From the NCBI GenBank assembly GCA_029261055.1, contig JAJDCA010000065.1, positions 9,581 to 73,580 on the forward strand: a DNA stretch of 64,000 nt, read 5' to 3'. The notes beneath the pieces are model-generated. The model was given only the letters and a program-made list of their open reading frames with translations. It was not told the DNA's origin and did no database searches. Of this stretch, positions 5,077 through 30,387 are shown in pieces. The position numbers and the translations under genes are program-made. This DNA comes from Candidatus Omnitrophota bacterium (lineage in GTDB: Bacteria; Omnitrophota; Gorgyraeia; Zapsychrales; Zapsychraceae). The stretch's first letter is position 1; each line of letters starts with the position of its first letter.

Positions 5077-5093
5077 TCTGCATCCTTATTTCA

Positions 5094-6414: not shown

Positions 6415-6427
6415 TTTATCCTCCCTA

Positions 6428-7714
6428 TCATAATTTCTCTCCAACAATTCTTTCCAAATACGCGATGGACTTATGATAATCCACAACCGCCTTGTAATAC
6501 GCTAGGCGTGTCTGTAAATACGTCCTTTCCGTATCCAACCAATCTAAAAAACTAATATTTCCCGTTTCAAATCCCGTTTGCGAAGAGTCAAACGCCTGCT
6601 GAGCCTGAGGCATCAAAGCTGTTTCATAAAGAGAAATAATATCGCGGTAAGTCGTAATTTTAAAATACATATCTTGCGCCTCAAAGGTAATCTGATTCCT
6701 AACACCCTTTTGACTTTCCTGTGCTGCTTTTAAAGATGATGTTTTTTCATTAAACAAGGCCTTTAATTTGCCAAACCATATTGGCACATTAACCGAAACT
6801 TTGGCTAGCCAAGCATCCTGGCCGTCATCAATAGAGGTCGTTGTCCCTCCGCCAATTTCAATAAATTCTGCCCCCAAAGTGAAATCTGGAAAATAATTCA
6901 TACGTGCTAAAGATTTTTCATATACAGCCCTTTCAACAAAAAAGTCCGCCGCCATCAACTCTTGTCGGGAATTCTGAGCTTTATTAACAACATCCTCCAT
7001 GGTATAAATAAAATCCTGATATTCTGCCTCTGTGATCTTTGCGATAATGACATTTGGTTTCCGGTTAAGCAGACTATTCATCCTCGCGGCTAGACTTTGC
7101 CTATTTTGTTTAAATAAAAATAATTTCCGGATAATATTAGAAAGCTCGACCTGCGCCTTGATCACGTCTTGCTGCGGAACAAGATTGGATTCATATTTTC
7201 GCTGGGCTACTTTTTCCAGCTTCTCCAAAATCGCCTTTTCTTCTTCATTAATCTCTACCGCCTTATCCACCCAGAACAAATCATAATACACAAACTTTAT
7301 ATCCTTAATGATTTCATTCTTAACTGCTTCGTATTGCTCCTTAAATATTTGCGCCTGCTTCGACTGCACTTTACCTTTCAGCCTTCGTTTCCCAGGAAAT
7401 GGGATTTTTTGCGCAAGGCCATATTTTTGCTTCTGCGGACCAACCCTTGTCTGCACCTCTTCCCCAAAATACCCATAACTGGCAACAGGGTCATCCAGAC
7501 TTTTCGCACTTTTAATTTTATATTCAGCCGTTTTCCATTTATGGTAGGCCTGTTGGATATTAGGATTATGATCAACAGCTTTCTCAATATAGGAATGAAG
7601 ACTTTCTTGCGCGGCCACTGAGATAGGCAAACACAAAAGAATAAAAACAAAAACAACCCATCTAAAACTTTGCTTATTAATTTTTAAAATTTGTTTGTAT
7701 CTTGTTTCTTGCAT
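6428..7714 (-). CDS. TolC-family outer membrane efflux protein (CusC-like)
   Basis: About 428 aa from the Met at 7714 (MQETRYKQ...) with signal peptide VVFVFILLCLPISVAAQ, preceded by RBS GAGGT. The body has the two-repeat OEP architecture. An alternative upstream start is at 7756. Confidence 0.8.
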   Translation of the reverse strand: MQETRYKQILKINKQSFRWVVFVFILLCLPISVAAQESLHSYIEKAVDHNPNIQQAYHKWKTAEYKIKSAKSLDDPVASYGYFGEEVQTRVGPQKQKYGLAQKIPFPGKRRLKGKVQSKQAQIFKEQYEAVKNEIIKDIKFVYYDLFWVDKAVEINEEEKAILEKLEKVAQRKYESNLVPQQDVIKAQVELSNIIRKLFLFKQNRQSLAARMNSLLNRKPNVIIAKITEAEYQDFIYTMEDVVNKAQNSRQELMAADFFVERAVYEKSLARMNYFPDFTLGAEFIEIGGGTTTSIDDGQDAWLAKVSVNVPIWFGKLKALFNEKTSSLKAAQESQKGVRNQITFEAQDMYFKITTYRDIISLYETALMPQAQQAFDSSQTGFETGNISFLDWLDTERTYLQTRLAYYKAVVDYHKSIAYLERIVGEKL

Positions 7715-7748
7715 CTTGCACCTTACCTCTTTTTTAAAGAATACCTTA

Positions 7749-8036
7749 TTACCCACTCTTTCTAAACGTCTTTAACAATTTTAATACTTCTTCTATTTTC
7801 TTTTTTTTCTCAGGTTCTGATTTTCCTTCAAAAGCCGTCTTAACGCAAGTATCCAAATGCTTTTCTAAAATATCACTCTGTACCCTTCCGACAGCACTGG
7901 ACACAGCGCTCAACTGCGTTAAAATATCCACACAATAACGCTTATCCTCGATCATTTTCTGAATGCCACGCACTTGCCCTTCAATACGTCTTAAAGCATC
8001 CAACTTCATTTTATGACTCGGTGACTTTTTCATCAC
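7749..8036 (-). CDS. csoR: CsoR/RcnR-family metal-sensing transcriptional repressor
   Basis: 95 aa protein with the DUF156/CsoR signature [13 protein letters not shown] and conserved Cys/His positions. It is the first gene of the cus-type efflux operon. Confidence 0.85.
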
Positions 8037-8048
8037 CCAAAGGATAAC

Positions 8049-8065
8049 ATACCCTATGGGGGTAT
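8049..8065. promoter_or_regulatory. CsoR operator ATACCCTATGGGGGTAT (GC-rich pseudo-palindrome)
   Basis: A near-perfect inverted repeat lies 13 bp upstream of the csoR start codon. It closely resembles the characterised Bacillus CsoR box (TACCC-N-GGGGGTA type). Confidence 0.6.
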
Positions 8066-8156
8066 GTCAATTTTTTTTGCCTTAATTTAATCTCGACAGA
8101 ATAGTGTGCAAATGCTATGATTTTTTTAAATCATAAAAATAACGAAAGGAACCCTG

Positions 8157-8390
8157 ATGAAAAAACGATCTATGCCCTATTTAGCTGTGGCCGGTGCCGT
8201 TATTGCCCTTCTATTACTATTAAATGTTAACGGTAATGCCTATAAAAAAGAATCCGCAACAGAAGATTTAAGCCAAACATTTGTTACCGACAAAAGTGAT
8301 CGTACACTTTTAAAAGAAATTCTTGTTTCTCAAAAAGAAACCGCTAAACTTTTAAAAGAAATTAAAATGCTTCTTGAAGAAAAAAAATAA
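8157..8390 (+). CDS. small secreted hypothetical protein with a K/E-rich C-terminus
   Basis: 77 aa with signal peptide MKKRSMPYLAVAGAVIALLLLLNVNG and a charged helical tail. Confidence 0.4.
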   Translation: MKKRSMPYLAVAGAVIALLLLLNVNGNAYKKESATEDLSQTFVTDKSDRTLLKEILVSQKETAKLLKEIKMLLEEKK

Positions 8391-8407
8391 GCATACTCAA
8401 AAAAAAT

Positions 8408-9340
8408 ATGAAATACGCCTTCATTGCCCTTTTCTTCTTCACGACAATTATTTCTACTGCCCTCGGACAAGAACAAAGAACAGACGGTTTGTATGAAGAA
8501 TTTTATGAATCTGGAGAGCTCCGACGCCTCGTCACATATGCCAATGGAAAACCGAATGGGCATTTTAATATCTTTGACAAAAATCGCAAACTCATAGGCG
8601 AAGGACTCTATATTGACGGCATATTGGATGACAAAGCCATTAGCTATTATCCTAACGGCTTGCCCAAACTAGAATTATTTTATACAAATGGAGCTCTCCA
8701 CGGAGTTTCCAAATCATTCTACGAAGATGGCACACTCAAAAGCGAATCACGCTATGAAAATAATCAACTCAACGGTCCCTCCAGAGAATACCGGGACAAT
8801 GGGGTCTTACATTATGAACGAAATTACAAAAATGATAAAGAACACGGCCTCGCTAAAGAATATTCAGACAACGGACTCCTTAAACGATCAACACAATTTG
8901 CAGATGGCGTTCAAAAAGGCATCATTCGGGAATACAGCAAACAAGGCCGACTATCACGAGCCTTTGAAGCACACAATGGGATCCCAAATGGTACCATAAA
9001 ACAATATTACCCTACTGGTGAACTACGCAGCGAGGGACCACTTACGCCTAAAGGAAAATTAGGTACCGGGCTCATTAAAGAATTTTATAAAAATGGGGCA
9101 TTATGGCGAGAAATTGATATTAAAAGTGGCAAACGTCATGGGCTCTTTCGTGAATTCCATAAAAACGGAACTATCAAAAGTACTGGCCATTTTAAAAACA
9201 GTAAACGTGAAGGCTTATTTGTGACTTACCGAGAAAACGGCATCTTAAAAAATAAGAAAACTTTCGAAACCAATAAAAAAATTCTAAGCAAAAATTATGA
9301 TGAATATGGAAATCTATTGCTTGGAGATGAAGAAGGATAA
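8408..9340 (+). CDS. secreted MORN-repeat (YwqK-like) protein
   Basis: Signal peptide followed by repeated G-x-Y-x-x-Y-x-N-G-x-L motifs typical of the MORN variant repeat. Confidence 0.6.
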   Translation: MKYAFIALFFFTTIISTALGQEQRTDGLYEEFYESGELRRLVTYANGKPNGHFNIFDKNRKLIGEGLYIDGILDDKAISYYPNGLPKLELFYTNGALHGVSKSFYEDGTLKSESRYENNQLNGPSREYRDNGVLHYERNYKNDKEHGLAKEYSDNGLLKRSTQFADGVQKGIIREYSKQGRLSRAFEAHNGIPNGTIKQYYPTGELRSEGPLTPKGKLGTGLIKEFYKNGALWREIDIKSGKRHGLFREFHKNGTIKSTGHFKNSKREGLFVTYRENGILKNKKTFETNKKILSKNYDEYGNLLLGDEEG

Positions 9341-9343
9341 AAT

Positions 9344-10018
9344 ATGACCTGGATACTCATCATCGTCGGAATTCTCCTATTAACAGGAGCCATTTTGTTA
9401 TCAAAACAATCGCCCTTTAAAGAAGTTACTCGAAATGACTTTCTTTTATCCCTGGCTAAAACCACCGATGGAACGCTTGAACCCTTACATACAAATGAGA
9501 ATTCTTTTAAAATTGATTTCACCTTTGAGAAGAAAAATTTCATCTATGAAGATATCGAGTATCCGGGCTTCCATGGAGAAGTATACAAATCATTTTTAAA
9601 AATTAAAACATCCAGCAAGCTATCTTTAAGTTTCCACGAAAAAAAGCGAACTAAAATCTTAGGATCAAAAATGCTTCTGGCCTCTGAAATACCTAACGAA
9701 GTGCCGGAGAGAGAAATAAAAATAAAATTACCTAAAGGTCTCAGTGGTCTTCATGTCAACACCTCTGACCGCCGACATGCAAATGCTTTATTAAATGATT
9801 CAAGAGCTTCACAAATTTTCACAGAATATAAATACTCTGATCGGGACGGCCTCCCCTATTCATCCTTGAGAATTCATAATGGCTCCATAACCCTGGAATT
9901 TCAGTCTGTCTCCACCCACAAACCCCGCCCATTATCTGAACACAATAACATCAATCAATTGGAAAATTATTTAGATAAATTGATAATTCTAGCAAAAAAG
10001 GTAGAACAGTATAAATAA
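9344..10018 (+). CDS. hypothetical single-pass membrane protein
   Basis: 224 aa with an N-terminal TM helix (ILIIVGILLLTGAILL) and no recognisable domain. The ATG lies 4 nt after the upstream stop. Confidence 0.45.
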   Translation: MTWILIIVGILLLTGAILLSKQSPFKEVTRNDFLLSLAKTTDGTLEPLHTNENSFKIDFTFEKKNFIYEDIEYPGFHGEVYKSFLKIKTSSKLSLSFHEKKRTKILGSKMLLASEIPNEVPEREIKIKLPKGLSGLHVNTSDRRHANALLNDSRASQIFTEYKYSDRDGLPYSSLRIHNGSITLEFQSVSTHKPRPLSEHNNINQLENYLDKLIILAKKVEQYK

Positions 10019-10023
10019 CGACC

Positions 10024-11658
10024 TTATTGTACGACAGGCTCCTCAGAATATAACTCTTTCCGCTGTTTCTTAACGTCTTCATTCATCAAATATTCATCAA
10101 GAGTTGTATCCGGCTTGTCAATAATGCCGTTAGGGGTGAGTTCAATAATGCGGTTGGCAATGGTTTGAACGAACTGGTGATCATGAGAGGAAAAGAATAC
10201 TGTACCACGAAATTTTTCAAGGCCTTCATTTAAAGCCGTAATAGACTCTAAATCCAAATGATTGGTCGGCTCATCCAAAATGAGAACATTAGCTTCCGTA
10301 TTCATCATCTTAGATAACATACAGCGTACTTTTTCACCACCGGAAAGAACGCCAACCTTCTTAAGCGTTTCTTCTCCTGAAAAAAGCATGCGCCCTAAAA
10401 AACCTCGCACAAAATTCTCATCAGAATCTTTAGAATACTGTCGCAACCAATCAATAAGATTTAAATCTTTTTCAAAATATTTTTTATTATCTTTTGGGAA
10501 ATAAGATCGTGTGGTTGTAATACCCCACTTTAAATTCCCTGTATCCGGGGCCAACTCCTCAGCAAGAATTTGAAAAAGCGTTGTTTTAGCCAAATCATTA
10601 CGCCCCATAAAGGCAATTTTGTCCCCACGATGAACCGTTAAATTTAAATTTTGAAACATATCAATATCGTTAACGGTCTTGCCCAACTTATTAAGTTCCA
10701 AAAGATCATTACCGGCGTCTCTTGCAGGTGTAAACATAATATGCGGATATTTCCTTGAGGAAGGTTTAATATCGTCCAGCGTCAATTTTTCTAAAACTTT
10801 TTTACGGGCAGTTGCCTGGCGAGACTTTGATGCATTCGCGCTAAAACGTGCGACAAAATTTTGCAATTCTTTTCTTTTATCTTCAACCTTTTTATTCGCA
10901 TCAGACCTTTGGCGCTGGGCTAACTGGCTTGATGCGGACCAAAAAGAATAATTCCCAGGGAACAACTGAATTTTCCCGAAATCAATATCGGCAATATGCG
11001 TACATACTTTGTCAAGGAAATGCCTATCATGCGAAACCACAATAGCCGTGTTTTCAAAATTATAGAGAAATTCTTCAAGCCACATCGACGTTTCCATATC
11101 CAAATGATTTGTGGGCTCATCTAAAAGAAGAATATCCGGATTACCAAACAAGGCCTGCGCCAACAGAACACGCACTTTTTGGCTGGCTTCAAGCTGCTTC
11201 ATATTGACCTGATGTAAATCTTCGCTAATTCCCAAATCACTCAATAATTTCCCCGCATCAGACTCTGCGTTCCACCCATCCATTTCAGCAAATTCCCCTT
11301 CAAGCTCAGAAACACGAATACCGTCTTCATCCGAAAAATCCGGCTTGGCATACAAGGCATCCCGGTCATTCATTACCTGATAAAGCCTCTCATACCCCAT
11401 AAAAACCGTCATTAATACCGGATGCTCATCATACGCAAATTGATCCTGCTTCAACATAGAAAGACGCTCCCCCTTACTCACAGAAACCGAACCTGCGGTT
11501 GGATCAATTTCGCCGGAAAGAATTTTCAAGAAAGTTGATTTACCGGAACCGTTGGCCCCAATAAGCCCATAACAGTTCCCCTTTGAAAAGACAATATTTG
11601 CCTCTTCAAAAAGCCGCCGTTTACCGTATTGTAAAGTTACATTATTTGCTGAAATCAT
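10024..11658 (-). CDS. ABC-F family ATPase (tandem ABC domains, no TM domain)
   Basis: NBD1 has Walker A GANGSGKST, an LSGGE signature and Walker B LLLDEPTNHLD. NBD2 has a second LSGGEKVR and ILDEPTNHLD, but a degenerate P-loop GRNDLAKTT. The start is set at the ATG at 11658, which has RBS AAAGGAG; the ORF track extends it to 11748. Confidence 0.85.
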   Translation of the reverse strand: MISANNVTLQYGKRRLFEEANIVFSKGNCYGLIGANGSGKSTFLKILSGEIDPTAGSVSVSKGERLSMLKQDQFAYDEHPVLMTVFMGYERLYQVMNDRDALYAKPDFSDEDGIRVSELEGEFAEMDGWNAESDAGKLLSDLGISEDLHQVNMKQLEASQKVRVLLAQALFGNPDILLLDEPTNHLDMETSMWLEEFLYNFENTAIVVSHDRHFLDKVCTHIADIDFGKIQLFPGNYSFWSASSQLAQRQRSDANKKVEDKRKELQNFVARFSANASKSRQATARKKVLEKLTLDDIKPSSRKYPHIMFTPARDAGNDLLELNKLGKTVNDIDMFQNLNLTVHRGDKIAFMGRNDLAKTTLFQILAEELAPDTGNLKWGITTTRSYFPKDNKKYFEKDLNLIDWLRQYSKDSDENFVRGFLGRMLFSGEETLKKVGVLSGGEKVRCMLSKMMNTEANVLILDEPTNHLDLESITALNEGLEKFRGTVFFSSHDHQFVQTIANRIIELTPNGIIDKPDTTLDEYLMNEDVKKQRKELYSEEPVVQ

Positions 11659-11797
11659 ATTTTTAAATATCTCCTTTAAAGAGCGCGGATTATAACACAA
11701 ATTCAACAAGACGGAAAAAATATTTTTATACCCAGAAATTCTATCCATAAACTCTTCATCTTGACATGCGGATAAGCCTCTGCTAAATTACGTCACC

Positions 11798-12601
11798 ATG
11801 CCAATCATATCTGACTATCACATGCATACCCCCCTTTGCGGACACGCCGAAGGAGCCCCTTTTGAATACGCTGAACATGCTATTAAGATGGGACTTGAAG
11901 AAATTGGATTTTCTGATCATGCACCTTTTGTCGTTCGCGAATTACCAGGCATTACAATGAAACATGAAGAACTCCCTGATTATTATCGTATGATTGAAGA
12001 GGTTCGCGCGAAATATCAAAATCAATTACGCATTAAAATCGCTATTGAAGCTGATTTTGTCCCCGGATATGAAGATAAAACTAAAGCCCTCTTAGACGAC
12101 TACCCTTATGATTATGTCATTGGATCTGTGCATTACATCAAAAATTGGGGATTTGATAATCCGGATGAACGGAATAAATGGGATGATCAAAGTATCAATG
12201 CAGTGTATTGTGACTACTATGAACTTCTACGCCAAAGCGCTGAGTCTGGACTTTATGATATTATTGCACACCCTGACCTCGTCAAGAAATTTGGACATCG
12301 TGCTACAGAAGATATTTTAGAAGAAATTGAAAAAACAGCCAACACCTTTAAACAATGCGGTGTGGCCATTGAAATTAACACTTCAGGTCTGCGTAAACCC
12401 GTCAAAGAAATGTACCCTGCCCTCTCTAATCTTAAGATTTATGCAAAAGCCGGCGTCCCTCTAACTTTCGGTTCAGACTCACACCAACCCACGGATGTTG
12501 GCTGCGATTTTGATAAAGCCCTTGCCTTGGCTAAAGAAGCCGGTTACACAGAGTATGTCTTATTTAAAAACCGCAAAATCGAACGCACGATAAAATTATA
12601 A
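11798..12601 (+). CDS. hisK: PHP-family histidinol-phosphatase
   Basis: N-terminal DYHMHTPLCGHA PHP motif, with further His/Asp metal-ligand motifs (SDHAP, HPDL, GSDSH). Confidence 0.75.
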   Translation: MPIISDYHMHTPLCGHAEGAPFEYAEHAIKMGLEEIGFSDHAPFVVRELPGITMKHEELPDYYRMIEEVRAKYQNQLRIKIAIEADFVPGYEDKTKALLDDYPYDYVIGSVHYIKNWGFDNPDERNKWDDQSINAVYCDYYELLRQSAESGLYDIIAHPDLVKKFGHRATEDILEEIEKTANTFKQCGVAIEINTSGLRKPVKEMYPALSNLKIYAKAGVPLTFGSDSHQPTDVGCDFDKALALAKEAGYTEYVLFKNRKIERTIKL

Positions 12602-12615
12602 AAAAGGATATTTCC

Positions 12616-13089
12616 ATGTCTAAAATCAAAGTTGGCAACAAAGCTCCAGATATCAACTTACCTGCCAGTAACGGCAAAAATGTTTCTCTCAAAGATTTTA
12701 AAGGTAAAACCAATGTGGTCTTGTATTTTTATCCTAAAGATGACACGCCTGGATGCACAACCCAAGCCTGCGCCTTCCGTGATAGCATCAAAGACATCGC
12801 CAAAAAAGAAACTGTCGTCTTAGGTGTCAGCCCTGACCCTGTCGACAAACACAATAAATTCATCGAAAAGTTCCAACTCCCCTTTATTCTTCTAAGTGAT
12901 ACAGAAAAGAAAACCTGCCAAAATTATGGCGTATGGGTTGAAAAAAGCATGTACGGCCGAAAATACATGGGCGTGGCGAGAACAACATTTGTGATTGATC
13001 AAGAAGGCACGCTCGTCAAAATATTTGAAAAAGTCAAACCCAAAGGGCATAACGAAGAAGTACTTGAATGTCTCAATACGCTTACTTAA
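12616..13089 (+). CDS. bcp: thiol peroxidase / peroxiredoxin Bcp
   Basis: 157 aa with the peroxiredoxin active-site motif YFYPKDDTPGCTTQACAFRD. Confidence 0.85.
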   Translation: MSKIKVGNKAPDINLPASNGKNVSLKDFKGKTNVVLYFYPKDDTPGCTTQACAFRDSIKDIAKKETVVLGVSPDPVDKHNKFIEKFQLPFILLSDTEKKTCQNYGVWVEKSMYGRKYMGVARTTFVIDQEGTLVKIFEKVKPKGHNEEVLECLNTLT

Positions 13090-14854
13090 AACGCGCCTCT
13101 AAATTTCTTATATAATTTTGGTCTATGGAATACCCTAACGATTTTGCATGTAAAGCATCTTCCAAAGCCTTTTGATAAGCACCGCTAGATTTATAAACAA
13201 CCGACCGATAAGAATAAACTTTTGCAAATCGTGAGTTAATACGCAAAGCAGAAGTAAAATCTTTCAAGGCTAGATCATATTGCTTAAGTATGTAAAAGAC
13301 AATCCCTCTATTGACATAAGTTTTCGCAAGCATTGGGTTCATTTTCAAAGCCTGAGTGTAATCCTTAATAGCTAAAGAATACTTGCCAGCAGCTTTGTAC
13401 AAATTCCCCCTATTATTTAAAATAAAATAATTCTCCTCTAAGGCTAACCCGCTATTGTAATCTTTAAGCGCCAGATCGTATTTCTTAAGATTCGCATAAA
13501 CGCCGCCCCTATTCGCATAAATTCTAGCACGCGTTGGATCTATCCTTAATGAAGCCGTAAAATCATCGATGGCAAGATTGTATTGTTTCTCCTTTACGAA
13601 ATAATTCCCACGATTATTGTAAGCTATACTCAAATTTGGATACTTTGCGAGAACATCATTCCATAACGTTAAACTATTTTTCCAAACGCCACACCTTTGA
13701 AAAGTTAAAAAAGAAAAAAAAGATACTACACAAATTAAAAATACAATTGCTGCATATTTCAATTGAGGTTTTTTATTGATCAATACGTTGTACCCTTGAC
13801 CAATAATAATAAACAATCCTAAAAAAGGAACATACGTAAATCGATCGGCTACAACAAATTTAATAGACGGCACAATCAAAACAATAAAGATTGTAGAAAT
13901 ATAAAAAAGAAACCCAAAAAGAATTTCTTTCGAAGTTTTACCTAATTTAACTATGAGATAAATGACAAAAAAAGAAATGAGCGGCGCAATGTAGATCTCC
14001 AGGGAAAATGAATTATTTATTTTCTGCGGATAAGGATAAAAACAAGAAAGATTAAATGGGAAAAAAAGCTTATAAATATACGTGTTAAACGCATAAGCAC
14101 TAAGTAGGATTTTTTCTAAGAAAAAATCTACCATGTTCATCTGCCATTTTCCGGCTAAACCTTGCGCCAATTGAAAAAACCCGAAAGAAAGCGAAATAAC
14201 AAAAAATGGAATTTTCTCAAATATAATTCTCGAACAAAATTTTCTTTTTAAGCAAAAATCAATATACAAAAGTATTACAGGAAGCGTTACCGCCATTACT
14301 TTAGAAAATACCGCGAGTAAAAATAATAGAAATGAGATTACAAAATATCTTTTTCTTAATTTTTCCCCGCTGCAATATAAGATGTAACTAATCAAAGAAC
14401 TAAAATAAAAAAAGGCATACAAAACATCTTTACGTTCTGAAATCCAGGCAACTGATTCAACATGCATGGGATGCACTCCAAACAAAATCGATGCAATCAA
14501 TGCGATGTCTAGTTTTTTGAATAGCAAAAAAATAAAAATGAATGCGAGTATTGTATTGAAAAGATGAAGAATTAGGTTATTGAGGTGAAATATCTTAGGA
14601 TTCAAACCGAAAAAATGATGCTCGAATGCGAATGAAGTTAATGTGAGCGGCATATAACCAGGTTTTTTAAGGCTTATTCCGCTAAAAAAGCTTTTTAGAT
14701 TATTTACAGATAAGCTTTTTATAGAATCATTTTGTGTGACATACGCAGGATCGTCAAAATTAGTAAAATCATTATTAATGGAAGGAAGGAACGCAACGGT
14801 TGTAAGGATTGTAATAAGCAGCAGTGAAGTTAGTATTTTCTTTATTTCAAACAA
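13082..14854 (-). CDS. polytopic membrane protein with C-terminal TPR repeats (PMT_2/GT39-like family)
   Basis: 590 aa. The N-terminal NDFTNFDDPAYVTQN motif and about 10 TM helices are followed by 6-7 TPR units (AYNNRGNYF..., IYANRGGVY...). Its 3' end overlaps bcp convergently by 8 nt. Confidence 0.7.
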   Translation of the reverse strand: MFEIKKILTSLLLITILTTVAFLPSINNDFTNFDDPAYVTQNDSIKSLSVNNLKSFFSGISLKKPGYMPLTLTSFAFEHHFFGLNPKIFHLNNLILHLFNTILAFIFIFLLFKKLDIALIASILFGVHPMHVESVAWISERKDVLYAFFYFSSLISYILYCSGEKLRKRYFVISFLLFLLAVFSKVMAVTLPVILLYIDFCLKRKFCSRIIFEKIPFFVISLSFGFFQLAQGLAGKWQMNMVDFFLEKILLSAYAFNTYIYKLFFPFNLSCFYPYPQKINNSFSLEIYIAPLISFFVIYLIVKLGKTSKEILFGFLFYISTIFIVLIVPSIKFVVADRFTYVPFLGLFIIIGQGYNVLINKKPQLKYAAIVFLICVVSFFSFLTFQRCGVWKNSLTLWNDVLAKYPNLSIAYNNRGNYFVKEKQYNLAIDDFTASLRIDPTRARIYANRGGVYANLKKYDLALKDYNSGLALEENYFILNNRGNLYKAAGKYSLAIKDYTQALKMNPMLAKTYVNRGIVFYILKQYDLALKDFTSALRINSRFAKVYSYRSVVYKSSGAYQKALEDALHAKSLGYSIDQNYIRNLEARFK

Positions 14855-22853: not shown

Positions 22854-23375
22854 TTATCTAGCATGAAATCCAATAGATCCTTTAGATTTCGTAGGTGGCT
22901 CTAGCAGGCGCTTGATCGCTTCGAAAACAATTTGGAATTGGTGATCATATTTTTTCTCCATCTTTTCAATCTTCTCACGCAAGTCGCGGTGCTCGATCAT
23001 CAGTTCACGGAGTTTTGCGAAGGTGCGCATGATTTGAATATTGACCTGAATAGCTCGCTTACTGTTGAGTACACTGGAAAGCATGAGAATACCATACTCT
23101 GTAAAGGCATAGGGTAATTTGCGTGGGCCTCCCCAACTTGAAGTGCCAAAATGGCACTTCAAGTTTGCAACCTCTTGTTGTGTAAGGGGTAATAAGAAAT
23201 CTACTGGAAACCGATCTTTATTACGGCGTACCTGTCGTGTTAAATGTTTTGTTTCCACACCATAAAGCTCTGCCAAATCTTTATCTAACATGACCTTCCT
23301 CCCACGAATCAACAAAATTTTGTTTTGGATGATTTCTTCGGGAACTATTTTGGTTATTATTTTCTTTGTTGTCAT
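22854..23375 (-). CDS. ORF6N-domain (KilA-N-related) protein, paralog A
   Basis: N-terminal LIRGRKVMLDKDLAELYGVETKHLTRQVRRNKDRFPVDF matches the ORF6N domain, with a C-terminal coiled coil. It contains a perfect 13+3+13 palindrome at 23136-23164. Confidence 0.7.
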   Translation of the reverse strand: MTTKKIITKIVPEEIIQNKILLIRGRKVMLDKDLAELYGVETKHLTRQVRRNKDRFPVDFLLPLTQQEVANLKCHFGTSSWGGPRKLPYAFTEYGILMLSSVLNSKRAIQVNIQIMRTFAKLRELMIEHRDLREKIEKMEKKYDHQFQIVFEAIKRLLEPPTKSKGSIGFHAR

Positions 23376-23408: not shown

Positions 23409-24968
23409 TCACCGCCCCCAGCTTCGATCCAGACTCCGATACTGTATCGCCTCGGCGATGTGGTCGGGTTGGATGCTTGATTGACCGTCCAAATCGGCAA
23501 TCGTGCGGGCGACTTTGAGGATTTTGTCGTGGGCACGGGCGGAAAGGGTGAGTTCATCAATAGCTCTCCTGAGCAAATCTTTGCCTTCATCAGTCAAGGC
23601 ACAATGTGTCCGAATTCTTTTTTGATTTAAATGGGCATTTGTAAATATTTTCTCTGGTGGTGCCAAAAGATTAATTTCGTCTTGAGATCTTTTTTGCTGA
23701 ACCTCACGCGCCGCAACAGTTCTCTTTTTGATAGCTGCCGAAGCCTCTCCTCTATTACCGACAGTCATTAATTCCACAGACTTCAGCGAAGGTACTTCTA
23801 AATGAATATCAATACGATCAAGCAAAGGGCCGGATATTTTGGACATATAGCGTTGAATTTGATTAGGATTGCAATGACACTCTTTCGCTGGATCTGAATA
23901 CCAACCACACGGACAAGGATTCATCGTCGCAATCAGCATAAAACGTGAAGGAAAACGAACGGTTTGGCTGGCACGAGAAATAGTTACCTGATGATCTTCT
24001 AAAGGCTGCCGTAAAGATTCCAATACATTGCGGCTAAACTCAGGCAATTCATCCAAAAACAAAATCCCATTATGCGCCAACGTCACTTCACCCGGCCGGG
24101 GCATTGACCCGCCGCCAACCAAAGCCACATCGGAACTTGTATGATGCGGTGAACGAAAAGGACGCTGATGAATAATCCCACGATTAGCCTGTACCAATCC
24201 CACCACTGAATGAATTTTAGTAGTTTCCAGAGCCTCATCGAGTATCATATCAGGCAATATCGTCAACATCCGTCTGGCAAGCATGGTCTTACCGCTTCCC
24301 GGAGGGCCTATCAAAAGAACATTGTGTCCTCCAGCCGCTGCAATTTCCAAACCCCGTTTAACATGCGCCTGCCCTTTAACCTCGGAAAAATCTGTATCGT
24401 AAAAATTAACCTTATTCCACAAAGATTCCATATTAACTTTAAAAGGCTCAATAATCGTAGGGTTTTGAAAAAAATACACGACTTCGTTGAGCGTCTTCGC
24501 CGGATAAACGGAAACATTCTTAGTCACAGCCGCCTCTGCAGCATTAGCCAATGGAAGAATCATTCCTTGAAATTGATCTGTTTCAAGAGACATGGTAATA
24601 GGCAAAACCCCTTTTATGGGTTGAATACGTCCATCTAAAGAAAGCTCACCCAATAGGACATAATTTTTCAAAGGCGTAATATCAATTTGTTCACTGGCTG
24701 CAAGAATCCCCAAAGCGATCGCTAAATCAAAAGAAGGCCCTTCCTTTTTAACATCCGCCGGAGAAAGGTTCACCGTAATCCGTCCCATTGGAAAATCGTA
24801 ACCACTATTCTTAATCGCCGAACGTACCCTCTCCTTACTTTCCCGCACCGCACTGTCTGGCAAACCTACAATATGCACACATGGCAATCCCCGCGACACA
24901 TGCACCTCAATAATAATCGGATAGGCATCCAATCCGGCAATACTATAACTACATACTTTGGCTAACAT
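23409..24968 (-). CDS. comM: YifB/ComM-family Mg-chelatase-like AAA+ ATPase
   Basis: 519 aa with an N-terminal Lon-like domain, Walker A GPPGSGKT, sensor motifs, a Cys cluster CPCGWYSD..CHC and a C-terminal Mg_chelatase_C region. Confidence 0.9.
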   Translation of the reverse strand: MLAKVCSYSIAGLDAYPIIIEVHVSRGLPCVHIVGLPDSAVRESKERVRSAIKNSGYDFPMGRITVNLSPADVKKEGPSFDLAIALGILAASEQIDITPLKNYVLLGELSLDGRIQPIKGVLPITMSLETDQFQGMILPLANAAEAAVTKNVSVYPAKTLNEVVYFFQNPTIIEPFKVNMESLWNKVNFYDTDFSEVKGQAHVKRGLEIAAAGGHNVLLIGPPGSGKTMLARRMLTILPDMILDEALETTKIHSVVGLVQANRGIIHQRPFRSPHHTSSDVALVGGGSMPRPGEVTLAHNGILFLDELPEFSRNVLESLRQPLEDHQVTISRASQTVRFPSRFMLIATMNPCPCGWYSDPAKECHCNPNQIQRYMSKISGPLLDRIDIHLEVPSLKSVELMTVGNRGEASAAIKKRTVAAREVQQKRSQDEINLLAPPEKIFTNAHLNQKRIRTHCALTDEGKDLLRRAIDELTLSARAHDKILKVARTIADLDGQSSIQPDHIAEAIQYRSLDRSWGR

Positions 24969-25522
24969 TATTTGCTCTCCTTTTTAGTCCTCGGGGGATG
25001 AAATCCAATAAGTTTCTTACGCTTTACCGGGGGATCGATTAAGCATTTGATTGCATCAAAAACTACTTTGAATTGATAATCATATTTTTCCTCCATCACT
25101 TCGATCTTTCGCTTCAAATCTTTATGAGTTACCATCAACTCTCTAAACTTTACGAATGTTTTCATGATTTGAATATTGACCTGAATAGCTCGCTTGCTAT
25201 TTAAAACACTTGAACGCATCAGGATGCCGTGTTCCGTGAAGGCAGATGGAAGTTTACGCGTACCTCCCCAACTTGAAGTCACAAATTGTGACTTCAAGTT
25301 TGAAACCTCTTCCCTTGTAAGAAGAAACATAAATTCGACTGGAAACCGACCCTGATTACGTTTTACAGCTTGATTAAGTACTTTTGTATCAACACCATAA
25401 AGTATTGCTAAATCTTTATCCAACATGACTTTCTGCCCTCTTATGAATAGAATCTTAATTTCTATCATGTCTTGAGCAACAACACTTGCAAAAGTATTTT
25501 TCTCTTTAACCATACAGATCAT
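24968..25522 (-). CDS. ORF6N-domain (KilA-N-related) protein, paralog B
   Basis: FIRGQKVMLDKDLAILYGVDTKVLNQAVKRNQGRFPVEF. It shares identical 30-nt blocks with paralog A at the DNA level and contains the equivalent palindrome at 25268-25296. Confidence 0.7.
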   Translation of the reverse strand: MICMVKEKNTFASVVAQDMIEIKILFIRGQKVMLDKDLAILYGVDTKVLNQAVKRNQGRFPVEFMFLLTREEVSNLKSQFVTSSWGGTRKLPSAFTEHGILMRSSVLNSKRAIQVNIQIMKTFVKFRELMVTHKDLKRKIEVMEEKYDYQFKVVFDAIKCLIDPPVKRKKLIGFHPPRTKKESK

Positions 25523-25667: not shown

Positions 25668-27293
25668 TTAGTCCAAAGGCAATTCGATAATTACTTCTGT
25701 TCCGGAACCCTCTTCACTTTTCACACTGATTTTACCACGATGATTTTCCATAATTCCTTGTGCAATGGACAAACCCAACCCCGTATGCCCTTCTTTTAAA
25801 CTAAAAAAAGGATCAAATATTTTAAGAAGTTCTTTCGCATCTATACCACAGCCTGTATCTTTGAATATGATTTGAAAAAAACCACCACCTTCTTTAACTT
25901 CAATCCAAAGCTTTTCATTATGCTCCATTGCCTCAACAGAATTCATAATAATATTCAAAAAAGCCTGCCGTATCTGATTAGAATCAATATGCAGGATAAT
26001 GTTCTTATTCATTTCAAAATTCTTAGAAATTTGAATATTTCGTTCAAAAAAATTACTTTTTAACAAATCAATAGTATCATTCAATAATTTAAGAACATCT
26101 GTATCATCCATAGAAGGCGGCGCCGGATGACTGTAATCTTTAAGAAGTTCAATCAAATTATTAATTTTACTCACTTCGCTTTCATGAATTTTGGCAAATT
26201 TCTTTAAAAATTCTTTATCATCTAATTTATTGGGTAAATGATATCCATAGGCTTTCAATGATGTAAGAGGATTTTTTATACCCTCAACAATATTGGCAAT
26301 TAAAGTAGCTAATGTTTTATACCGATCCGTCTGGGACACTTCTTGAAGAAGAAGCTCATTTTCTTCGGCAATCTCAGATTGCGTGCCTTTGTAAAATAGT
26401 TTATCAACAAAATGCTGAATCCGATTCCTTACCGGAATAATCATCATTCCGATGATAAGAGCCGCTCCGATAGAACCCAATATGGTCGTGTAACCTAAAA
26501 CACCTTGCGATAGCCGTTCGAAAAAAATAACCAAAACCAAAAGCGTTAAATAGATACAGCTAATTAATAATGAATACCCAAGACTTTTTTTAACAATAAT
26601 ACTCATATTAAACAGACGATGACGAACCATCGCATATCCCATAATCACTGGATAAAACCCTATTAAGAAATTAGACCATGGATAAATATTTCCGCCAAAA
26701 TAAATAAAAAAGTTACCCTGCCCACCAATCCATCCCACAATAGAAGCAGTAATAAAATATCGCATTTGTTGATGTCTTAACCCCGTAGATTGTTGTAAAT
26801 ACTTCAACATCAAATAAAATGCATACAAAAAAAGCAGTCCATAAAATCCAACAAAAAAAGTCAACCAAAGTGGGCTTTTATGCACCGGCCAATCAACCAC
26901 ATAAAATTGACCAAATGCAAATCTGAGATCGCCTAAAAATAATTCTCTGGCAAAAAAATTGTAAAAAAGAAAAACCCCACCTAAGGTATACAAAATGGCC
27001 AACACATAATCTTTTTTTATTTGTAAAAATGAAAAAACAAAATGAACATACAGTGGTGGAATAAATATTTTGGCAATATACGCAATTTGATACCAAAAGA
27101 AGGCCTTTTCTTTAACGTTTGTTGTCGCAATTTGATACCCACAAAAACCCCAAAGAGCTACCAATAAACTAATCCAACCAAAAATCGTTGTGACCCTTTT
27201 CCCGCTACCTTTTAAAAAAACAAATATCGTCATGATTAAAGTAGAAATCAAAACACATAATGACGATATGGCAAATGGATTGAGTTGTGACAT
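25668..27293 (-). CDS. orphan sensor histidine-kinase-like protein with a 7TM-type N-terminal domain and a degenerate H-box
   Basis: About 9 N-terminal TM helices and a central coiled coil. The HisKA-like box reads VEGIKNPL where AHEIKNPL is expected. The HATPase_c N, G1, F and G2 boxes are intact (NIIMNSVEAM, DTGCGI, FDPFFS, GLGLSIAQ). No response regulator lies nearby. Confidence 0.75.
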   Translation of the reverse strand: MSQLNPFAISSLCVLISTLIMTIFVFLKGSGKRVTTIFGWISLLVALWGFCGYQIATTNVKEKAFFWYQIAYIAKIFIPPLYVHFVFSFLQIKKDYVLAILYTLGGVFLFYNFFARELFLGDLRFAFGQFYVVDWPVHKSPLWLTFFVGFYGLLFLYAFYLMLKYLQQSTGLRHQQMRYFITASIVGWIGGQGNFFIYFGGNIYPWSNFLIGFYPVIMGYAMVRHRLFNMSIIVKKSLGYSLLISCIYLTLLVLVIFFERLSQGVLGYTTILGSIGAALIIGMMIIPVRNRIQHFVDKLFYKGTQSEIAEENELLLQEVSQTDRYKTLATLIANIVEGIKNPLTSLKAYGYHLPNKLDDKEFLKKFAKIHESEVSKINNLIELLKDYSHPAPPSMDDTDVLKLLNDTIDLLKSNFFERNIQISKNFEMNKNIILHIDSNQIRQAFLNIIMNSVEAMEHNEKLWIEVKEGGGFFQIIFKDTGCGIDAKELLKIFDPFFSLKEGHTGLGLSIAQGIMENHRGKISVKSEEGSGTEVIIELPLD

Positions 27294-27381
27294 ACGTAAA
27301 TATCCCTTATTTTTAATAATACCTATTACTTCAAGTATAACATTTTATCTTCTTATTGAGTAGGGAGCGCAAAAACAAAAA

Positions 27382-27420
27382 AATAACGGCCACTTTATTT
27401 TAAAAAAAGTGGCCGTTATT
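27382..27420 (-). terminator. rho-independent terminator (12-bp stem AATAACGGCCAC / GTGGCCGTTATT) downstream of the repeat-protein gene
   Basis: A perfect 12-bp stem with a 15-nt loop. On the minus-strand transcript it is followed by a U-run (plus-strand AAAAACAAAAAAA at 27371-27381). It probably also insulates the kinase gene. Confidence 0.6.
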
Positions 27421-27454
27421 TCTTTACTGTATGTAGATCTACCCATCACCTAAT

Positions 27455-28291
27455 TTATTTATTTTTTCTCGCACGATGCTTCGCCTTCAACCCCTTCCGC
27501 TGGTGATTAACATTTTTACGTATTTGTTGCTTAGCCTCCCGCTGAGATGAACCAGGATTATTCGCCCGATATTTATCCGCGCCACTTTTAAACTTTTCTC
27601 GCTTTCCCTGACGATTATCTCGGCGATCTTGACGTTTTTCTTGACGATTTTCACGATTCTCGCTCCGATTTCCCTGACGATCATCTCGCCGATCTTGACG
27701 TCTTTCCTGACGACCTTCTCGATTTTCACTCCGATTTCCCTGACGATTATCTTGGCGATCTTGACGTCTTTCCTGACGGCCTTCTCGATTTTCACTCCGA
27801 TTCCCCTGACGATCATCTCGGCGATCTTGACGTCTTTCCTGACGACCTTCTCGATTTTCACTCCGATTCCCCTGACGATCATCTCGGCGATCTTGACGTC
27901 TTTCCTGACGGCCTTCTCGATTTTCACTCCGATTTCCCTGACGATCATCTCGACGATCTTGACGTCTTTCCTGACGGTCATCTCGATGTTCTTGCCTTTT
28001 TTCCTGACGGTCTTCCTTATTACCTTGTTTATGCTCTTTAGCCTCTTCTTTAAAACCTTTCATCTTTTCACGAATTTCTTCAGGGGACAACCCTTGATCT
28101 TTATACTCTTCAATGGATGATTTCCTTCTGGATTGAAAATCACTCCACCACTGCTTATTTTCTTCTTGTTCCTGATCTCTATACTCTCTAAATTCTGATC
28201 TCGAATCTACCTCACCCGTAGAATCTTCTTGCGCCCAAACAGCAGGTACTAATACGATACTTAGAAGTACTACTAGTGTTAGCTTATTCAT
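27455..28291 (-). CDS. secreted highly charged tandem-repeat protein (about five 22-aa REGRQERRQDRRDDRQGNRSEN units)
   Basis: Signal peptide MNKLTLVVLLSIVLVPAVWAQ, followed by an R/Q/D/E/N-rich low-complexity body. The repeats are encoded by a 66-bp tandem array. Confidence 0.6.
   Translation of the reverse strand: MNKLTLVVLLSIVLVPAVWAQEDSTGEVDSRSEFREYRDQEQEENKQWWSDFQSRRKSSIEEYKDQGLSPEEIREKMKGFKEEAKEHKQGNKEDRQEKRQEHRDDRQERRQDRRDDRQGNRSENREGRQERRQDRRDDRQGNRSENREGRQERRQDRRDDRQGNRSENREGRQERRQDRQDNRQGNRSENREGRQERRQDRRDDRQGNRSENRENRQEKRQDRRDNRQGKREKFKSGADKYRANNPGSSQREAKQQIRKNVNHQRKGLKAKHRARKNK
27597..27990. repeat. 66-bp tandem DNA repeat, about 6 copies, inside the repeat-protein CDS
   Basis: The unit start CTCGATTTTCAC recurs at 27717, 27783, 27849 and 27915 with an exact 66-bp period. 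It generates the spurious overlapping ORFs 27487..27981(-) and 27629..28120(+). Confidence 0.8.
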
Positions 28292-28394: not shown

Positions 28395-28991
28395 TTATCT
28401 TTTTTTCCTATGCTCTCGCTGTAATTTCTTATGCGTTCTCTTTTTTTGCTTCACATCTTTTTTCCGTTCTGCTGATGATTTTTTTAACCGATTATGCTTT
28501 TGCCGAAGTTGCTGCTTTTGTTCCGGAGAAAATTTTTGCCATTTTTCCTTTTTTTGTTTTAACCTATGCCTTTCATCTGGCTTGGTTTGACGAAAACGTT
28601 TATGTTCTTTAATAATACGCTGACGCTCTTCCGGTGTTGTTTTTTTCCACCGTTCAAACTTTTTCTCAACCATCTTACGCCGATGCTTCGGCAAATCATT
28701 ATGTTTTTTCCAATTCTTTTGAATACGAGACTTCTCTTCTTTAGAAAAATTTTTAAACCGGTCATAATTCTTACGTATTTTAGATTTTTCTTCAGAACTA
28801 AGATTTTTCCATTCTTTCCATCGTTGTCGTAATGCTTCTTTTTGTTCCGGCGCTAAATTACGCCATTTCTTCTGCGCAGCCTCTTCAGAGCTCATTTCCT
28901 GGGCTTGAACTTCTAAAACAATACCCACACCCAATAAATTTGCCGTTAGTAAACAGCTTAAAATAATTACCAAATATTTCTTATTATTCAT
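28395..28991 (-). CDS. secreted, extremely basic repeat protein, DUF3106-like
   Basis: A signal/TM peptide, then repeated W-x-x-L-(S/A)-P-E-(Q/E)-K-x-x-(L/I)-R-x-(R/K/N)-(W/Y) units rich in K and R. An 8-nt overlap with the upstream gene indicates translational coupling within the sigma operon. Confidence 0.55.
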   Translation of the reverse strand: MNNKKYLVIILSCLLTANLLGVGIVLEVQAQEMSSEEAAQKKWRNLAPEQKEALRQRWKEWKNLSSEEKSKIRKNYDRFKNFSKEEKSRIQKNWKKHNDLPKHRRKMVEKKFERWKKTTPEERQRIIKEHKRFRQTKPDERHRLKQKKEKWQKFSPEQKQQLRQKHNRLKKSSAERKKDVKQKKRTHKKLQREHRKKR

Positions 28992-29217
28992 CTTTATCGT
29001 CCTCTCTCATTTCATCTAAAACTTCGTATTCTTCTAAAAAAGATAAATCTTGTTCAAGCATATCTATGTTCTCTAAAAAATCTAAATTACCAATGATCTC
29101 TAAATCTTCCTCCGACATTTCTTTTTCAACAACTTCGTCTGCACGACCTGCCTGCCCACTCACAATGGGAAATATTTGAATCAAACATAAAATAAACAAA
29201 ACATAATATTTCCTCAC
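28984..29217 (-). CDS. small secreted acidic protein, related to the periplasmic tail of the adjacent anti-sigma factor
   Basis: 77 aa with signal peptide MRKYYVLFILCLIQIFPIVSG. EIIGNLDFLENIDMLEQDLSFLEE resembles EIIEDIDFLVDLEVIENLDVLE in the anti-sigma C-terminus. Confidence 0.5.
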   Translation of the reverse strand: MRKYYVLFILCLIQIFPIVSGQAGRADEVVEKEMSEEDLEIIGNLDFLENIDMLEQDLSFLEEYEVLDEMREDDKDE

Positions 29218-29723
29218 GCTTCGCCCTCCAAAACATCCAAATTCTCAATAACTTCTAAATCCACCAAGAAATCAATATCTTCAATAATTTCATAATGCTC
29301 AATCAATTCCATATTTGCCACCATTTCAAAATACCCTTCATTCAAATGGGCCAAACCTTCATCAGATAACCGCCCATTAAAATAATTTTGTATACTCAAA
29401 AACCCAACAATAATCATAATACAGGTTGTTGCTAAAACAGGTACAAGCGGCCTTTTAGACAATCCAGCGCTTAAATTCTTTAAAATAGCTTCATGCCACG
29501 GTGTCCGTAACGAAAGTTCTGTCCAAAAACGGGACACATAATCCGGTGCCGGCTCAATATCGGCTATTTCATCCAACATATCCCAAGATCGCTCAAAGGC
29601 TGAAATCTCCTTTTGACACAGCAAACAAGAAGCCAGATGATCTTTAACCTCTTTACTTTCTTGAGGTTGCAGCTCACCTTCCAAATAAATCGGCATTAAT
29701 TTTTTTATACTCTCACAGTTCAT
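29214..29723 (-). CDS. zf-HC2 anti-sigma factor, single-pass membrane protein
   Basis: N-terminal C..GEL....H..C..C zinc-finger (CESIKKLMPIYLEGEL...HLASCLLCQ), a central TM helix, and an acidic periplasmic tail. It lies immediately downstream of the ECF sigma gene. Confidence 0.7.
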   Translation of the reverse strand: MNCESIKKLMPIYLEGELQPQESKEVKDHLASCLLCQKEISAFERSWDMLDEIADIEPAPDYVSRFWTELSLRTPWHEAILKNLSAGLSKRPLVPVLATTCIMIIVGFLSIQNYFNGRLSDEGLAHLNEGYFEMVANMELIEHYEIIEDIDFLVDLEVIENLDVLEGEA

Positions 29724-29778: not shown

Positions 29779-30387
29779 TTATACCCATTTCACTAATTTA
29801 GTCCTCAAATTCTCTTTAGCTCTATTCAATAATGACTTCACAGCTTTTTCCGACGTCCCCATAGTTTGCGCAATTTGCTCATAAGAAAATTTGTCATACC
29901 TCCGCAAAAGAACCGCCAGACGCTGATTTTCCGGTAAACTGTTGATCGCTTTGCGAATAGCCGTCACCTTTTCCTTCTGCACCATAGCCTGATCAGGACC
30001 CAAAGTTTCCGTATCCGCCATTTGCCTTTGCATCTCATTTTTGCCTGTATCAAATGGTGCATCCAATGAAACCATACCTTTTCGATTTCGTCTCAATTCA
30101 TTCAAACTCATATTTTTTGCAATAGTGTACACCCACGTCTGAAATTTTGATTGAGGCTGATAATAGGATCCGCTTTTGTATACTTTAATAAAGACTTCCT
30201 GCGTGATGTCTTCCGCAATCTCACGGGTACCCACAAAACGATAAATAAAATTCAGTAAGCGAGGAAAATATTTACGCAACAAGGCCTCAAAAGCCGCCTT
30301 ATCGCCTTGTTGAAAAGATAACATCAATTGAACATCTGGGTCGGAAAGATAGGGATTTAAATTATCGTTCGGATTAAACACGGTCAT
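29779..30387 (-). CDS. ECF (group IV sigma-70) RNA polymerase sigma factor
   Basis: 202 aa with a sigma-70 region 2 (FIYRFVGTREIAEDITQEVFIKVY) and a region 4 helix-turn-helix (LPENQRLAVLLRRYDKFSYEQIAQTMG). Confidence 0.85.
   Translation of the reverse strand: MTVFNPNDNLNPYLSDPDVQLMLSFQQGDKAAFEALLRKYFPRLLNFIYRFVGTREIAEDITQEVFIKVYKSGSYYQPQSKFQTWVYTIAKNMSLNELRRNRKGMVSLDAPFDTGKNEMQRQMADTETLGPDQAMVQKEKVTAIRKAINSLPENQRLAVLLRRYDKFSYEQIAQTMGTSEKAVKSLLNRAKENLRTKLVKWV

Follow-up and report, generated by a model that had tools for sequence, protein, structure and literature searches.

What can a histidine kinase do once the phospho-acceptor histidine has gone? The question is raised by a gene of a Candidatus Omnitrophota bacterium (assembly GCA_029261055.1, contig JAJDCA010000065.1), which lies in a stretch of 64,000 nucleotides (64 kb) that we analyzed as a whole and refer to as the window. 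The gene (25668..27293, minus strand) is a complete open reading frame (ORF) in the ORF list, and its translation, P0001, is a histidine-kinase-like protein of 541 aa. Pfam matches and alignments resolve its architecture into an N-terminal HisKA_7TM sensor, a dimerization and histidine-phosphotransfer (DHp) hairpin and a C-terminal HATPase_c domain. All our inferences on P0001 and its relatives are drawn from sequence. They place the protein in a whole clade of His-less paralogs with a remodeled DHp core and a changed G2 box, which an earlier reading of this DNA (the original prediction) had missed. As to function, we tentatively favor a regulatory pseudokinase that still binds nucleotide.

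The loss itself is readily located. The degenerate H-box, VEGIKNPL (residues 336-343; 26265..26288, minus strand), includes the codons GTT GAG GGT for V336, E337 and G338, with E337 at 26283-26285. Gap-free phmmer alignments against solved kinases place E337 opposite the phospho-acceptor His and G338 opposite the adjacent Glu, the facing motifs being 'aHEirnpl' in ZraS, 'aHEirnp' in ThkA and 'sHElrtpl' in HK853 (H260). The register of the original prediction, in which His had become Glu and the next Glu had become Gly, was thereby confirmed. In the profile comparison that it had called for, HisKA (PF00512) gave only a weak match over residues 329-388 (20.4 bits, under the gathering score of 26.9). 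In a family alignment of 170 proteins, described below, column 337 is His in all 155 His-bearing members, and the replacement is therefore neither an alignment artifact nor a chance variant. At the next position, the Gly of P0001 stands against Glu, Asp or Ala in every other aligned family member, whereas N341, the Thr/Asn position of the phosphatase motif (H+4), is retained and P342 is invariant. We also considered a frameshift or assembly error and ruled it out: the codons are in frame, an identical protein was recovered from an independent Logan assembly (SRR15505515), and the trait is common to a clade.

P0001 retains the H+4 Thr/Asn, a DHp hairpin followed by HATPase_c, the HisKA_7TM region and membership of the His-less clade, and it lacks the acceptor His, the acidic residue at H+1, a HisKA match above the Pfam threshold and a nearby response regulator. 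In characterized kinases, the acidic H+1 residue is needed for kinase activity and the H+4 Thr/Asn for phosphatase activity (PMC3510030). The DHp hairpin of P0001 spans residues 305-388 (26130..26381, minus strand), with helix alpha1 at 305-355, a turn at 356-359 and alpha2 at 360-388, as delimited by the AlphaFold2 model, alignments to ZraS, ThkA and HK853, and Foldseek, whose top matches for the model were HK853 and ZraS. The top NCBIfam matches were AtoS and ZraS, both far under their equivalog cut-offs.

Is P0001 an isolated oddity? A word-indexed homolog search suggested so, returning about 20 full-length relatives at 31-40% identity that all carry the intact motif AHE[IV][KR]NPL (alignment A1) and giving the impression of a lone lineage-specific mutant. 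This was overturned by an exhaustive HMMER search of 1.84 billion representatives, which found further His-less relatives among the best 150 further family members that we examined. The combined family set of 170 proteins was aligned with MAFFT, and 15 of these have no His at column 337, showing instead Asp (five), Leu (two), Glu (two) or, once each, Lys, Thr, Asn, Gln, Ser and Val. We then built neighbor-joining (NJ) trees from the cytoplasmic residues 305-541 (234 columns), leaving out positions 337 and 338. The 15 His-less proteins and two His-bearing ones, P0131 and P0158, formed one 17-member clade, recovered exactly in 79 of 100 bootstraps; in all 100, the smallest clade of 6-25 taxa around the window protein was at least 70% His-less. 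Its highest cytoplasmic identities are to P0149 (Asp337; 53%) and P0137 (Gln337; 50%).

The His-less subfamily comprises P0137, P0149, P0150, P0152, P0145, P0166, P0192, P0222 and P0153, together with P0126, P0146, paralogs at the locus L094 and the His-bearing P0131 and P0158; a 13-member alignment of it (A2) has 31-39% identity to the window protein. Further loci contributed three L094 paralogs and the fragment L096, each of them with Asp337. The tally for the acceptor position in 21 clade members is Asp in nine, Glu, His and Leu in two each, and Gln, Asn, Lys, Thr, Ser and Val in one each, and within A2 alone that position takes eight different residues. Position 338 is Glu, Ala or Gly, and position 341 is Asn in 12 of the 21, with Ala, Lys, Asp, Gly, Ser, Glu or Thr as the other states. 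The original prediction had asked whether orthologs conserve the Glu; in the subfamily it is not conserved, and what is shared across a clade is the loss of His. The related suggestion of a phosphomimetic Glu is not supported by this column, which across the subfamily holds Asp, Glu, Leu, Gln, Asn, Lys, Thr, Ser or Val. Acidic residues are enriched there (11 of 19 His-less members), though they are not required.

Motifs common to the subfamily and absent from canonical members include 'ERYKTL' before the H-box, which in the window protein reads DRYKTL (residues 323-328; 26310..26327, minus strand) with the signature residues Y325 and L328. After the H-box comes 'LKGY.HF', seen in the window protein as LKAYGYHLP, of which KAYGYHLP (residues 347-354; 26232..26255, minus strand) lies at the lower end of alpha1 and carries the signature residues A348 and Y349. 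Further subfamily-only motifs are 'QIRQA', leading into the N box, and 'HTGLGLS..QGI' in place of the canonical 'GTGLGL'. A comparison of differential conservation singled out eight positions: 349 (Tyr in the subfamily; Phe in 97% of canonical members), 332 (Thr/Ile; Ala 92%), 503 (His/Asn; Gly 97%), 385 (Thr/Lys/Ser; Leu 92%), 348 (Gly/Ala; Thr 90%), 351 (His/Tyr; Glu 78%), 325 (invariant Tyr; Leu/Phe/Met) and 335 (invariant Ile; Met/Leu/Ile). The window protein shows the subfamily state at all eight, and Y387 besides. Positions 325/332 and 328/335/349 are heptad-related and, judged from spacing alone, would belong to the DHp core, and positions 348 and 349 (H+11 and H+12) are the classic response-regulator specificity positions. 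In the His-less group, DHp core and specificity positions appear to have changed in concert. Since P0131 and P0158 show the whole signature but keep His337, that signature, with its G2 change, is older than the loss of His.

The ATP-binding (CA) domain offers the reverse picture. It spans residues 396-540 (25674..26108, minus strand; 396-539 in the AlphaFold2 model), is supported by alignments and matches HATPase_c (PF02518) over residues 437-540 with 83.3 bits. The minus-strand motifs are the N box QAFLNIIMNSVEAM (residues 443-456; 25926..25967), with N447 and N451 invariant in the subfamily; the G1 box DTGCGI (479-484; 25842..25859), with D479, G481 and G483 invariant; the F box FDPFF (493-497; 25803..25817), with D494 and P495 invariant; and an altered G2 box, HTGLGL (503-508; 25770..25787), in which H503 replaces the first Gly. 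The domain had been described as fully canonical, which does not hold at this position: 503 is His or Asn throughout the 13-member subfamily set, whereas 97% of canonical relatives have Gly. Among 121 more distant kinases, the first G2 position is Gly in 89%, and a His or Asn there is therefore unusual but not unique. Across A2, the invariant residues are N447, N451, D479, G481, G483, D494, P495, G505-L-G-L508, P342 and several transmembrane (TM) residues, and the F-box Lys and the ATP/Mg ligands are invariant or nearly so. Because positions 337, 338 and 341 vary while the N, G1, F and most G2 residues do not, the nucleotide pocket appears to be under strong purifying selection and the catalytic chemistry of the H-box to be relaxed. 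Three distant clade members, P0224, P0258 and P0261, lack N-box and G-box residues too.

The sensor half may have a separate history. The HisKA_7TM profile (PF16927) matches residues 14-230 (26604-27254) with 43.4 bits, above its cut-off of 28.6. The membrane region as a whole (residues 1-301; 26391..27293, minus strand), delimited from Pfam and AlphaFold2, has nine predicted TM helices, that is, the 7TM domain plus two, and a short beta-hairpin at 122-134 (mean predicted local distance difference test, pLDDT, 79 for the model). The family assignment made in the original prediction, a 7TM sensor, was sound, whereas the helix count that the name implies was not. Over residues 1-240, the window protein is 35-54% identical to the canonical P0125, P0127 and P0138 and only 11-32% to the His-less P0149, P0137 and P0158; from about residue 260 the order reverses, and the DHp-CA part is closest to the His-less P0149 and P0137. 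P0125 shares 42% identity with the sensor domain of the window protein. A full-length NJ tree suggested kinship to P0125, which the domain-wise analysis traces to the TM region only. In TM-only trees, the subfamily members scatter without clustering, and the TM part of the window protein falls nearest the canonical P0138, P0125 and P0127. This suggests that sensor and transmitter modules have been shuffled among paralogs, or else that the sensor domains evolve too fast to retain the signal.

Where, then, would such a protein find its partner? Canonical members of the family are encoded in a conserved locus, in which an HTH_3-Cupin_2 regulator is followed by a stand-alone receiver and one to three tandem 7TM kinases. 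Convergent with this locus runs a second set of genes, for a 7TM-GAF-histidine kinase (H-box LSHQINNR), a receiver and an HD-GYP protein, and the whole looks like a multikinase/cyclic di-GMP (c-di-GMP) module. Of seven independent loci, six show this arrangement and the exception, L090, has a sigma-54 type regulator upstream; examples among the loci L082-L091 are L084 (6951-13360) and L089 (3255-11384), and one contig, that of P0017, is labeled Omnitrophota. The tandem canonical kinases and the 7TM-GAF kinases, which have no Pfam HisKA match, were considered as possible His-less partners and rejected, as all of them have the His. Genes for SpoVG and 23S-rRNA-IVP often lie close to these loci.

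A receiver-domain (REC) gene lies within about 1.6 kb of the kinase gene or genes in seven of seven canonical loci. The His-less loci differ. L092 (20.8 kb, from a Ca. Omnitrophota metagenome-assembled genome) carries two tandem His-less copies with Leu337 (K8S27_07260 and K8S27_07265; 10001-13252), and L094 (12.3 kb) carries four, all with Asp337 (1327-9079). A cognate-receiver profile found no receiver in the 64 kb of the window, the 20.8 kb of L092 or the 12.3 kb of L094. Within the window, no receiver domain or second kinase was detected by phmmer with four receiver queries, by Pfam on ORFs of at least 110 aa or by that profile, which bears out the orphan status already proposed for P0001; GGDEF, EAL and HD-GYP domains were likewise absent from the 64 kb. 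A receiver is thus nearby in 7/7 canonical and 0/3 His-less loci (Fisher's exact p ~0.008, on small numbers), and the His-less genes have left the conserved regulator-receiver-kinase locus. P0131, which has the signature and keeps its His, is by comparison still encoded close to receiver genes, a canonical 7TM kinase and an HTH-cupin gene.

Among the readings that had been offered, a pseudokinase fits this evidence best. We favor, tentatively and with slightly less than even confidence, a signal-regulated, nucleotide-binding histidine pseudokinase that would modulate a multikinase network through a partner encoded elsewhere. P0001 would still dimerize and bind ATP or ADP, and its nine-helix domain would sense a membrane or periplasmic signal. 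Since its DHp helix could carry no phosphoryl group, it would act by binding a partner in a signal- and nucleotide-dependent manner, the candidates being a receiver protein or a His-bearing paralog encoded elsewhere. Such binding might tune a network of canonical 7TM kinases, stand-alone receivers and an HD-GYP phosphodiesterase, by a logic like that of DivL or RetS.

Several observations weigh against this proposal. Every ATP/Mg ligand is strictly conserved, beyond what is seen in known pseudokinases (DivL binds an ATP analog only weakly and PsmA lacks the ATP-binding motifs), and this could mean that the CA domain still performs phosphotransfer. The window protein keeps the phosphatase-specific N341, as would suit a phosphatase. 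The NJ trees are distance-based and join divergent sequences (31-53% identity). Finally, only three independent His-less loci have usable flanks, and the receiver negatives cover those flanks only.

Such a phosphatase role is the alternative that survives best, though we still consider it unlikely. P0001 would here be a dedicated, sensor-switched phosphatase (kinase-minus, phosphatase-plus) acting with nucleotide as a cofactor on the phosphorylated receivers of its canonical paralogs. Both residues lost from the window protein, the His and the adjacent Glu, are kinase-specific, and N341 and a conserved nucleotide pocket are what such an enzyme would retain. The phosphatase activities of EnvZ and NtrB are reportedly stimulated by nucleotide, EnvZ G2-box mutants are said to be kinase-minus and phosphatase-plus, and NtrB H139N and EnvZ H243V reportedly keep phosphatase activity. 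The clade as a whole fits less well: just 12 of its 21 members have Asn at H+4, no receiver is encoded nearby, and the canonical kinases, on whose receivers the phosphatase would act, have different residues at 348 and 349. Moreover, the His itself contributes in HK853, where it helps to activate the catalytic water and where H260A has diminished phosphatase activity (PMC5727384).

Somewhat more doubtful is a working CA phosphotransferase that uses another acceptor, whether a His in a mixed dimer, a Ser, Thr or Tyr of P0001 or of another protein, or the acidic residue at 337. The near-invariance of the ATP/Mg ligands and the F-box Lys in a subfamily of only 31-39% identity speaks for this explanation, as does the enrichment of acidic residues at 337 (11/19). 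P0131 and P0158, which combine the DHp-core signature with His337, are compatible dimer partners within the clade, and trans-phosphorylation between complementary EnvZ and NtrB mutants is said to be well established. Tyr, moreover, now occupies three DHp positions, invariantly at 325 and 387 and almost invariantly at 349. Position 337, however, may also be Leu, Lys, Thr, Asn, Gln, Ser or Val and so conserves no one alternative acceptor, and by the spacing argument 325 and 349 would occupy heptad positions in the bundle core, not on its surface. All four tandem paralogs of L094 are His-less, no His-bearing subfamily member was seen in the 64-kb window, and the G2-box change could lower catalysis.

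That the gene is a relic without function, a kinase gene left by duplication and on its way to being lost, we regard as improbable. The exact protein has a single cluster member, its H-box and several neighboring positions have diverged, and elsewhere in the clade P0224, P0258 and P0261 have lost N-box and G-box residues and the L096 fragment has an in-frame stop. The 541-codon ORF is nevertheless intact. The nearest full-length relatives are just 37-44% identical overall, and despite this divergence every catalytic residue of the CA domain is preserved, as are P342 and, among the invariant residues of the TM domain, W48, Y220, Y240 and P287. The subfamily is also old, diversified and tandemly expanded, and the tandem duplication with intact copies in L092 and L094 favors function over decay.

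Slightly less probable again is a split or re-targeted transmitter, in which an ATP site re-tooled by the His/Asn at G2 would transfer phosphate to Asp or Glu at 337, as an acyl-phosphate, or to the His of a mixed dimer.

The neighborhood raises a further explanation, to which we allow only a slender chance: that P0001 partners an extracytoplasmic function (ECF) sigma, anti-sigma and secreted charged-protein operon, for example by controlling the anti-sigma factor in the manner of a sensor or by acting as an RsbW-type GHKL Ser kinase. Upstream of the kinase-like gene, on the same minus strand, stand genes for an ECF sigma factor (29779-30387), a zf-HC2 anti-sigma factor (29214-29723), a 77-aa acidic protein, a DUF3106 protein (28395-28991) and, last in the string, a 278-aa secreted repeat protein with no Pfam match (27455-28291), with P0001 directly downstream. 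The functional link proposed in the original prediction is undercut by the 161-bp spacer, which contains a long, perfect intrinsic-terminator-like hairpin and U-tract between the repeat-protein gene and the kinase-like gene (27371..27425, minus strand; -35.3 kcal/mol, z = -6.2, with none of 200 shuffles as stable). The consensus scan missed this long-stem terminator, which was located by eye and by RNA folding; it closes the ECF-sigma operon, and its position upstream makes the kinase-like gene most likely a separate transcription unit. In the spacer (27294-27454), consensus scanning of the minus strand revealed no sigma-70-like promoter. The other His-less loci, L092 and L094, contain no ECF sigma factor, and the one adjacent to P0001 already has its own zf-HC2 anti-sigma factor. 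Nor does the protein resemble RsbW or SpoIIAB, as it has a DHp domain and no HATPase_c_2 (PF13581) match, and there is no STAS gene among its neighbors.

Least credible of all is a conventional autokinase with H352 (26238-26240), the His of YGYHL, as a relocated phospho-acceptor: H352 does lie on alpha1, and several subfamily members have a His at 351, two heptads below 337, but the window protein has Tyr351, and H352 is placed 15 residues after E337 (not 11, as had been counted), three residues from the end of alpha1 at the hairpin and four helical turns (~22 Å by helix geometry) from the site reached by the CA domain, and it is shared by 12% of the canonical His-bearing relatives but is seen in just one of the 13 subfamily members and so behaves as a neutral variant, while H351 arose before the loss of His337, since P0131 and P0158 have both.

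In the literature that we searched, we found no account of a HisKA_7TM subfamily without the His, and the group is apparently a small, undescribed one in Omnitrophota-type bacteria. Further scans added little to its membership. A genome-contig scan with the A1 pattern Gx[AV]HE[IV][KR]NPL returned mostly unrelated NtrB-type kinases, the sole relevant match being L002 (Ca. Omnitrophota); searches that used A2 and A3, alignments of the subfamily itself, failed to recover it. A metagenome scan with A4 found one unrelated PilS-like kinase and the 1.2-kb fragment L096 (JGI Ga0114945_10173992; 170-511), which has Asp at the His position and an in-frame stop within the conserved motif, read as HLS-stop-YS, reflecting either a pseudogene or a sequencing error.

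The rest of the window bears on other matters. The 278-aa repeat protein has an apparent signal peptide, judged from its N-terminal sequence, and its gene contains an array (27603-27991) in which a 66-bp (22-aa) unit, NRSENREGRQERRQDRRDDRQG, is repeated 5.9 times with 92% identity. Downstream of the kinase-like gene, two ORF6N paralogs that are 65% identical (22854-23375 and 24968-25522, minus strand) bracket a gene for a ComM/YifB Mg-chelatase-like ATPase (23409-24968), and the stop of the upstream ORF6N gene overlaps the comM start. A minus-strand gene at 56319-58202 encodes an amino-acid permease fused to a C-terminal EIIA_2 domain of the phosphotransferase system (PTS) and adjoins genes for a tandem-Usp protein and Mrp/Nuo-type antiporter subunits. 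The remaining genes are housekeeping in nature (efflux pump, isoprenoid, Suf, cytochrome bd, Mrp/Nuo-like and others). From ~19 kb to 64 kb, every Pfam-assigned ORF of at least 110 aa is on the minus strand, and the GC skew is negative in every 2-kb window, consistent with a single replichore.

The practical interest of P0001 lies first in annotation. Degenerate 'kinases' of this sort are routinely annotated as sensor histidine kinases and enter two-component censuses under that name, and the combination of no His337, His or Asn at the first G2 position and Tyr325 with Tyr349 provides a signature that separates the present group from true kinases. Beyond this, a whole line of paralogs, from a phylum about which little is known, has lost its acceptor and kept its ATP site under tight constraint, unlike the characterized pseudokinases DivL and PsmA, in which that site is weakened or gone. 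If the ATP site of these paralogs is functional, the lineage would be a natural system for studying the role of nucleotide binding in a kinase unable to phosphorylate itself and the wiring of multikinase networks by non-phosphorylating members.

How does P0001 compare with systems already described? It is set apart from RsbW and SpoIIAB, small HATPase_c_2 proteins without a DHp domain that are encoded together with a STAS antagonist and a sigma factor. A closer parallel is found in engineered kinase-minus, phosphatase-plus mutants of EnvZ and NtrB (H243V, H139N and G2-box changes), reportedly the models for phosphatase-only function and trans-complementation. As in P0001, the acceptor His is lost and/or the G2 box changed with the nucleotide pocket retained; those, however, are laboratory mutants with known cognate regulators, whereas the state of P0001 is natural and old and is accompanied by a remodeled DHp core. 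The nearest relatives are the canonical Omnitrophota 7TM kinases (P0002-P0022, P0125 and others), which share its architecture and length at 31-44% identity and have an H-box of the NtrB/AtoS/ZraS type, AHE[IV][KR]NPL. They differ in having His337 and Glu338, a GTGLGL G2 box, A332, T348, F349 and E351, and a receiver locus.

By its proposed function, P0001 can be likened to RetS of Pseudomonas, an orphan gene product with a 7TM sensor, a 'kinase' that modulates another kinase instead of phosphorylating a regulator of its own (PMC5992135). RetS acts on GacS by several mechanisms (PMC5992135), in part as a phosphate sink and transmitter phosphatase, and it differs in its receiver domains and in a sensor of the 7TMR-DISM and not the HisKA_7TM kind. 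PsmA of Streptomyces resembles P0001 in its unconstrained acceptor position, which holds Glu in S. venezuelae but can be Asp, Gln, Val or Tyr in orthologs, and has no autokinase activity (PMC12963549). It is not orthologous to P0001. PsmA is cytoplasmic, has PAS domains and a receiver, binds DivIVA, and has lost the ATP-binding and E/DxxT/N motifs, where P0001 keeps N341 and all ATP ligands. DivL of Caulobacter crescentus is likewise a membrane-anchored protein of class I histidine kinase fold (DHp and CA) without an acceptor His, and its structure (4q20) was matched by both Foldseek and phmmer, the latter in the CA domain only (E = 1e-6). DivL has no kinase or phosphatase activity, binds DivK~P on its response-regulator docking face and binds the ATP analog TNP-ATP weakly (PMC4211667). 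It too is not an ortholog, the nearest relatives of P0001 being 7TM kinases from Omnitrophota-type assemblies, and it has PAS sensors, a conserved Tyr at the His position and weak TNP-ATP binding where P0001 has a nine-helix sensor, a variable residue and a conserved pocket. Histidine pseudokinases such as DivL and PsmA are thus an established kind, and in kind P0001 is no surprise. It usefully corrects annotation and might serve as a model of what ATP does in pseudokinases, and its one unusual trait is a strictly conserved pocket with His or Asn at the first G2 position.

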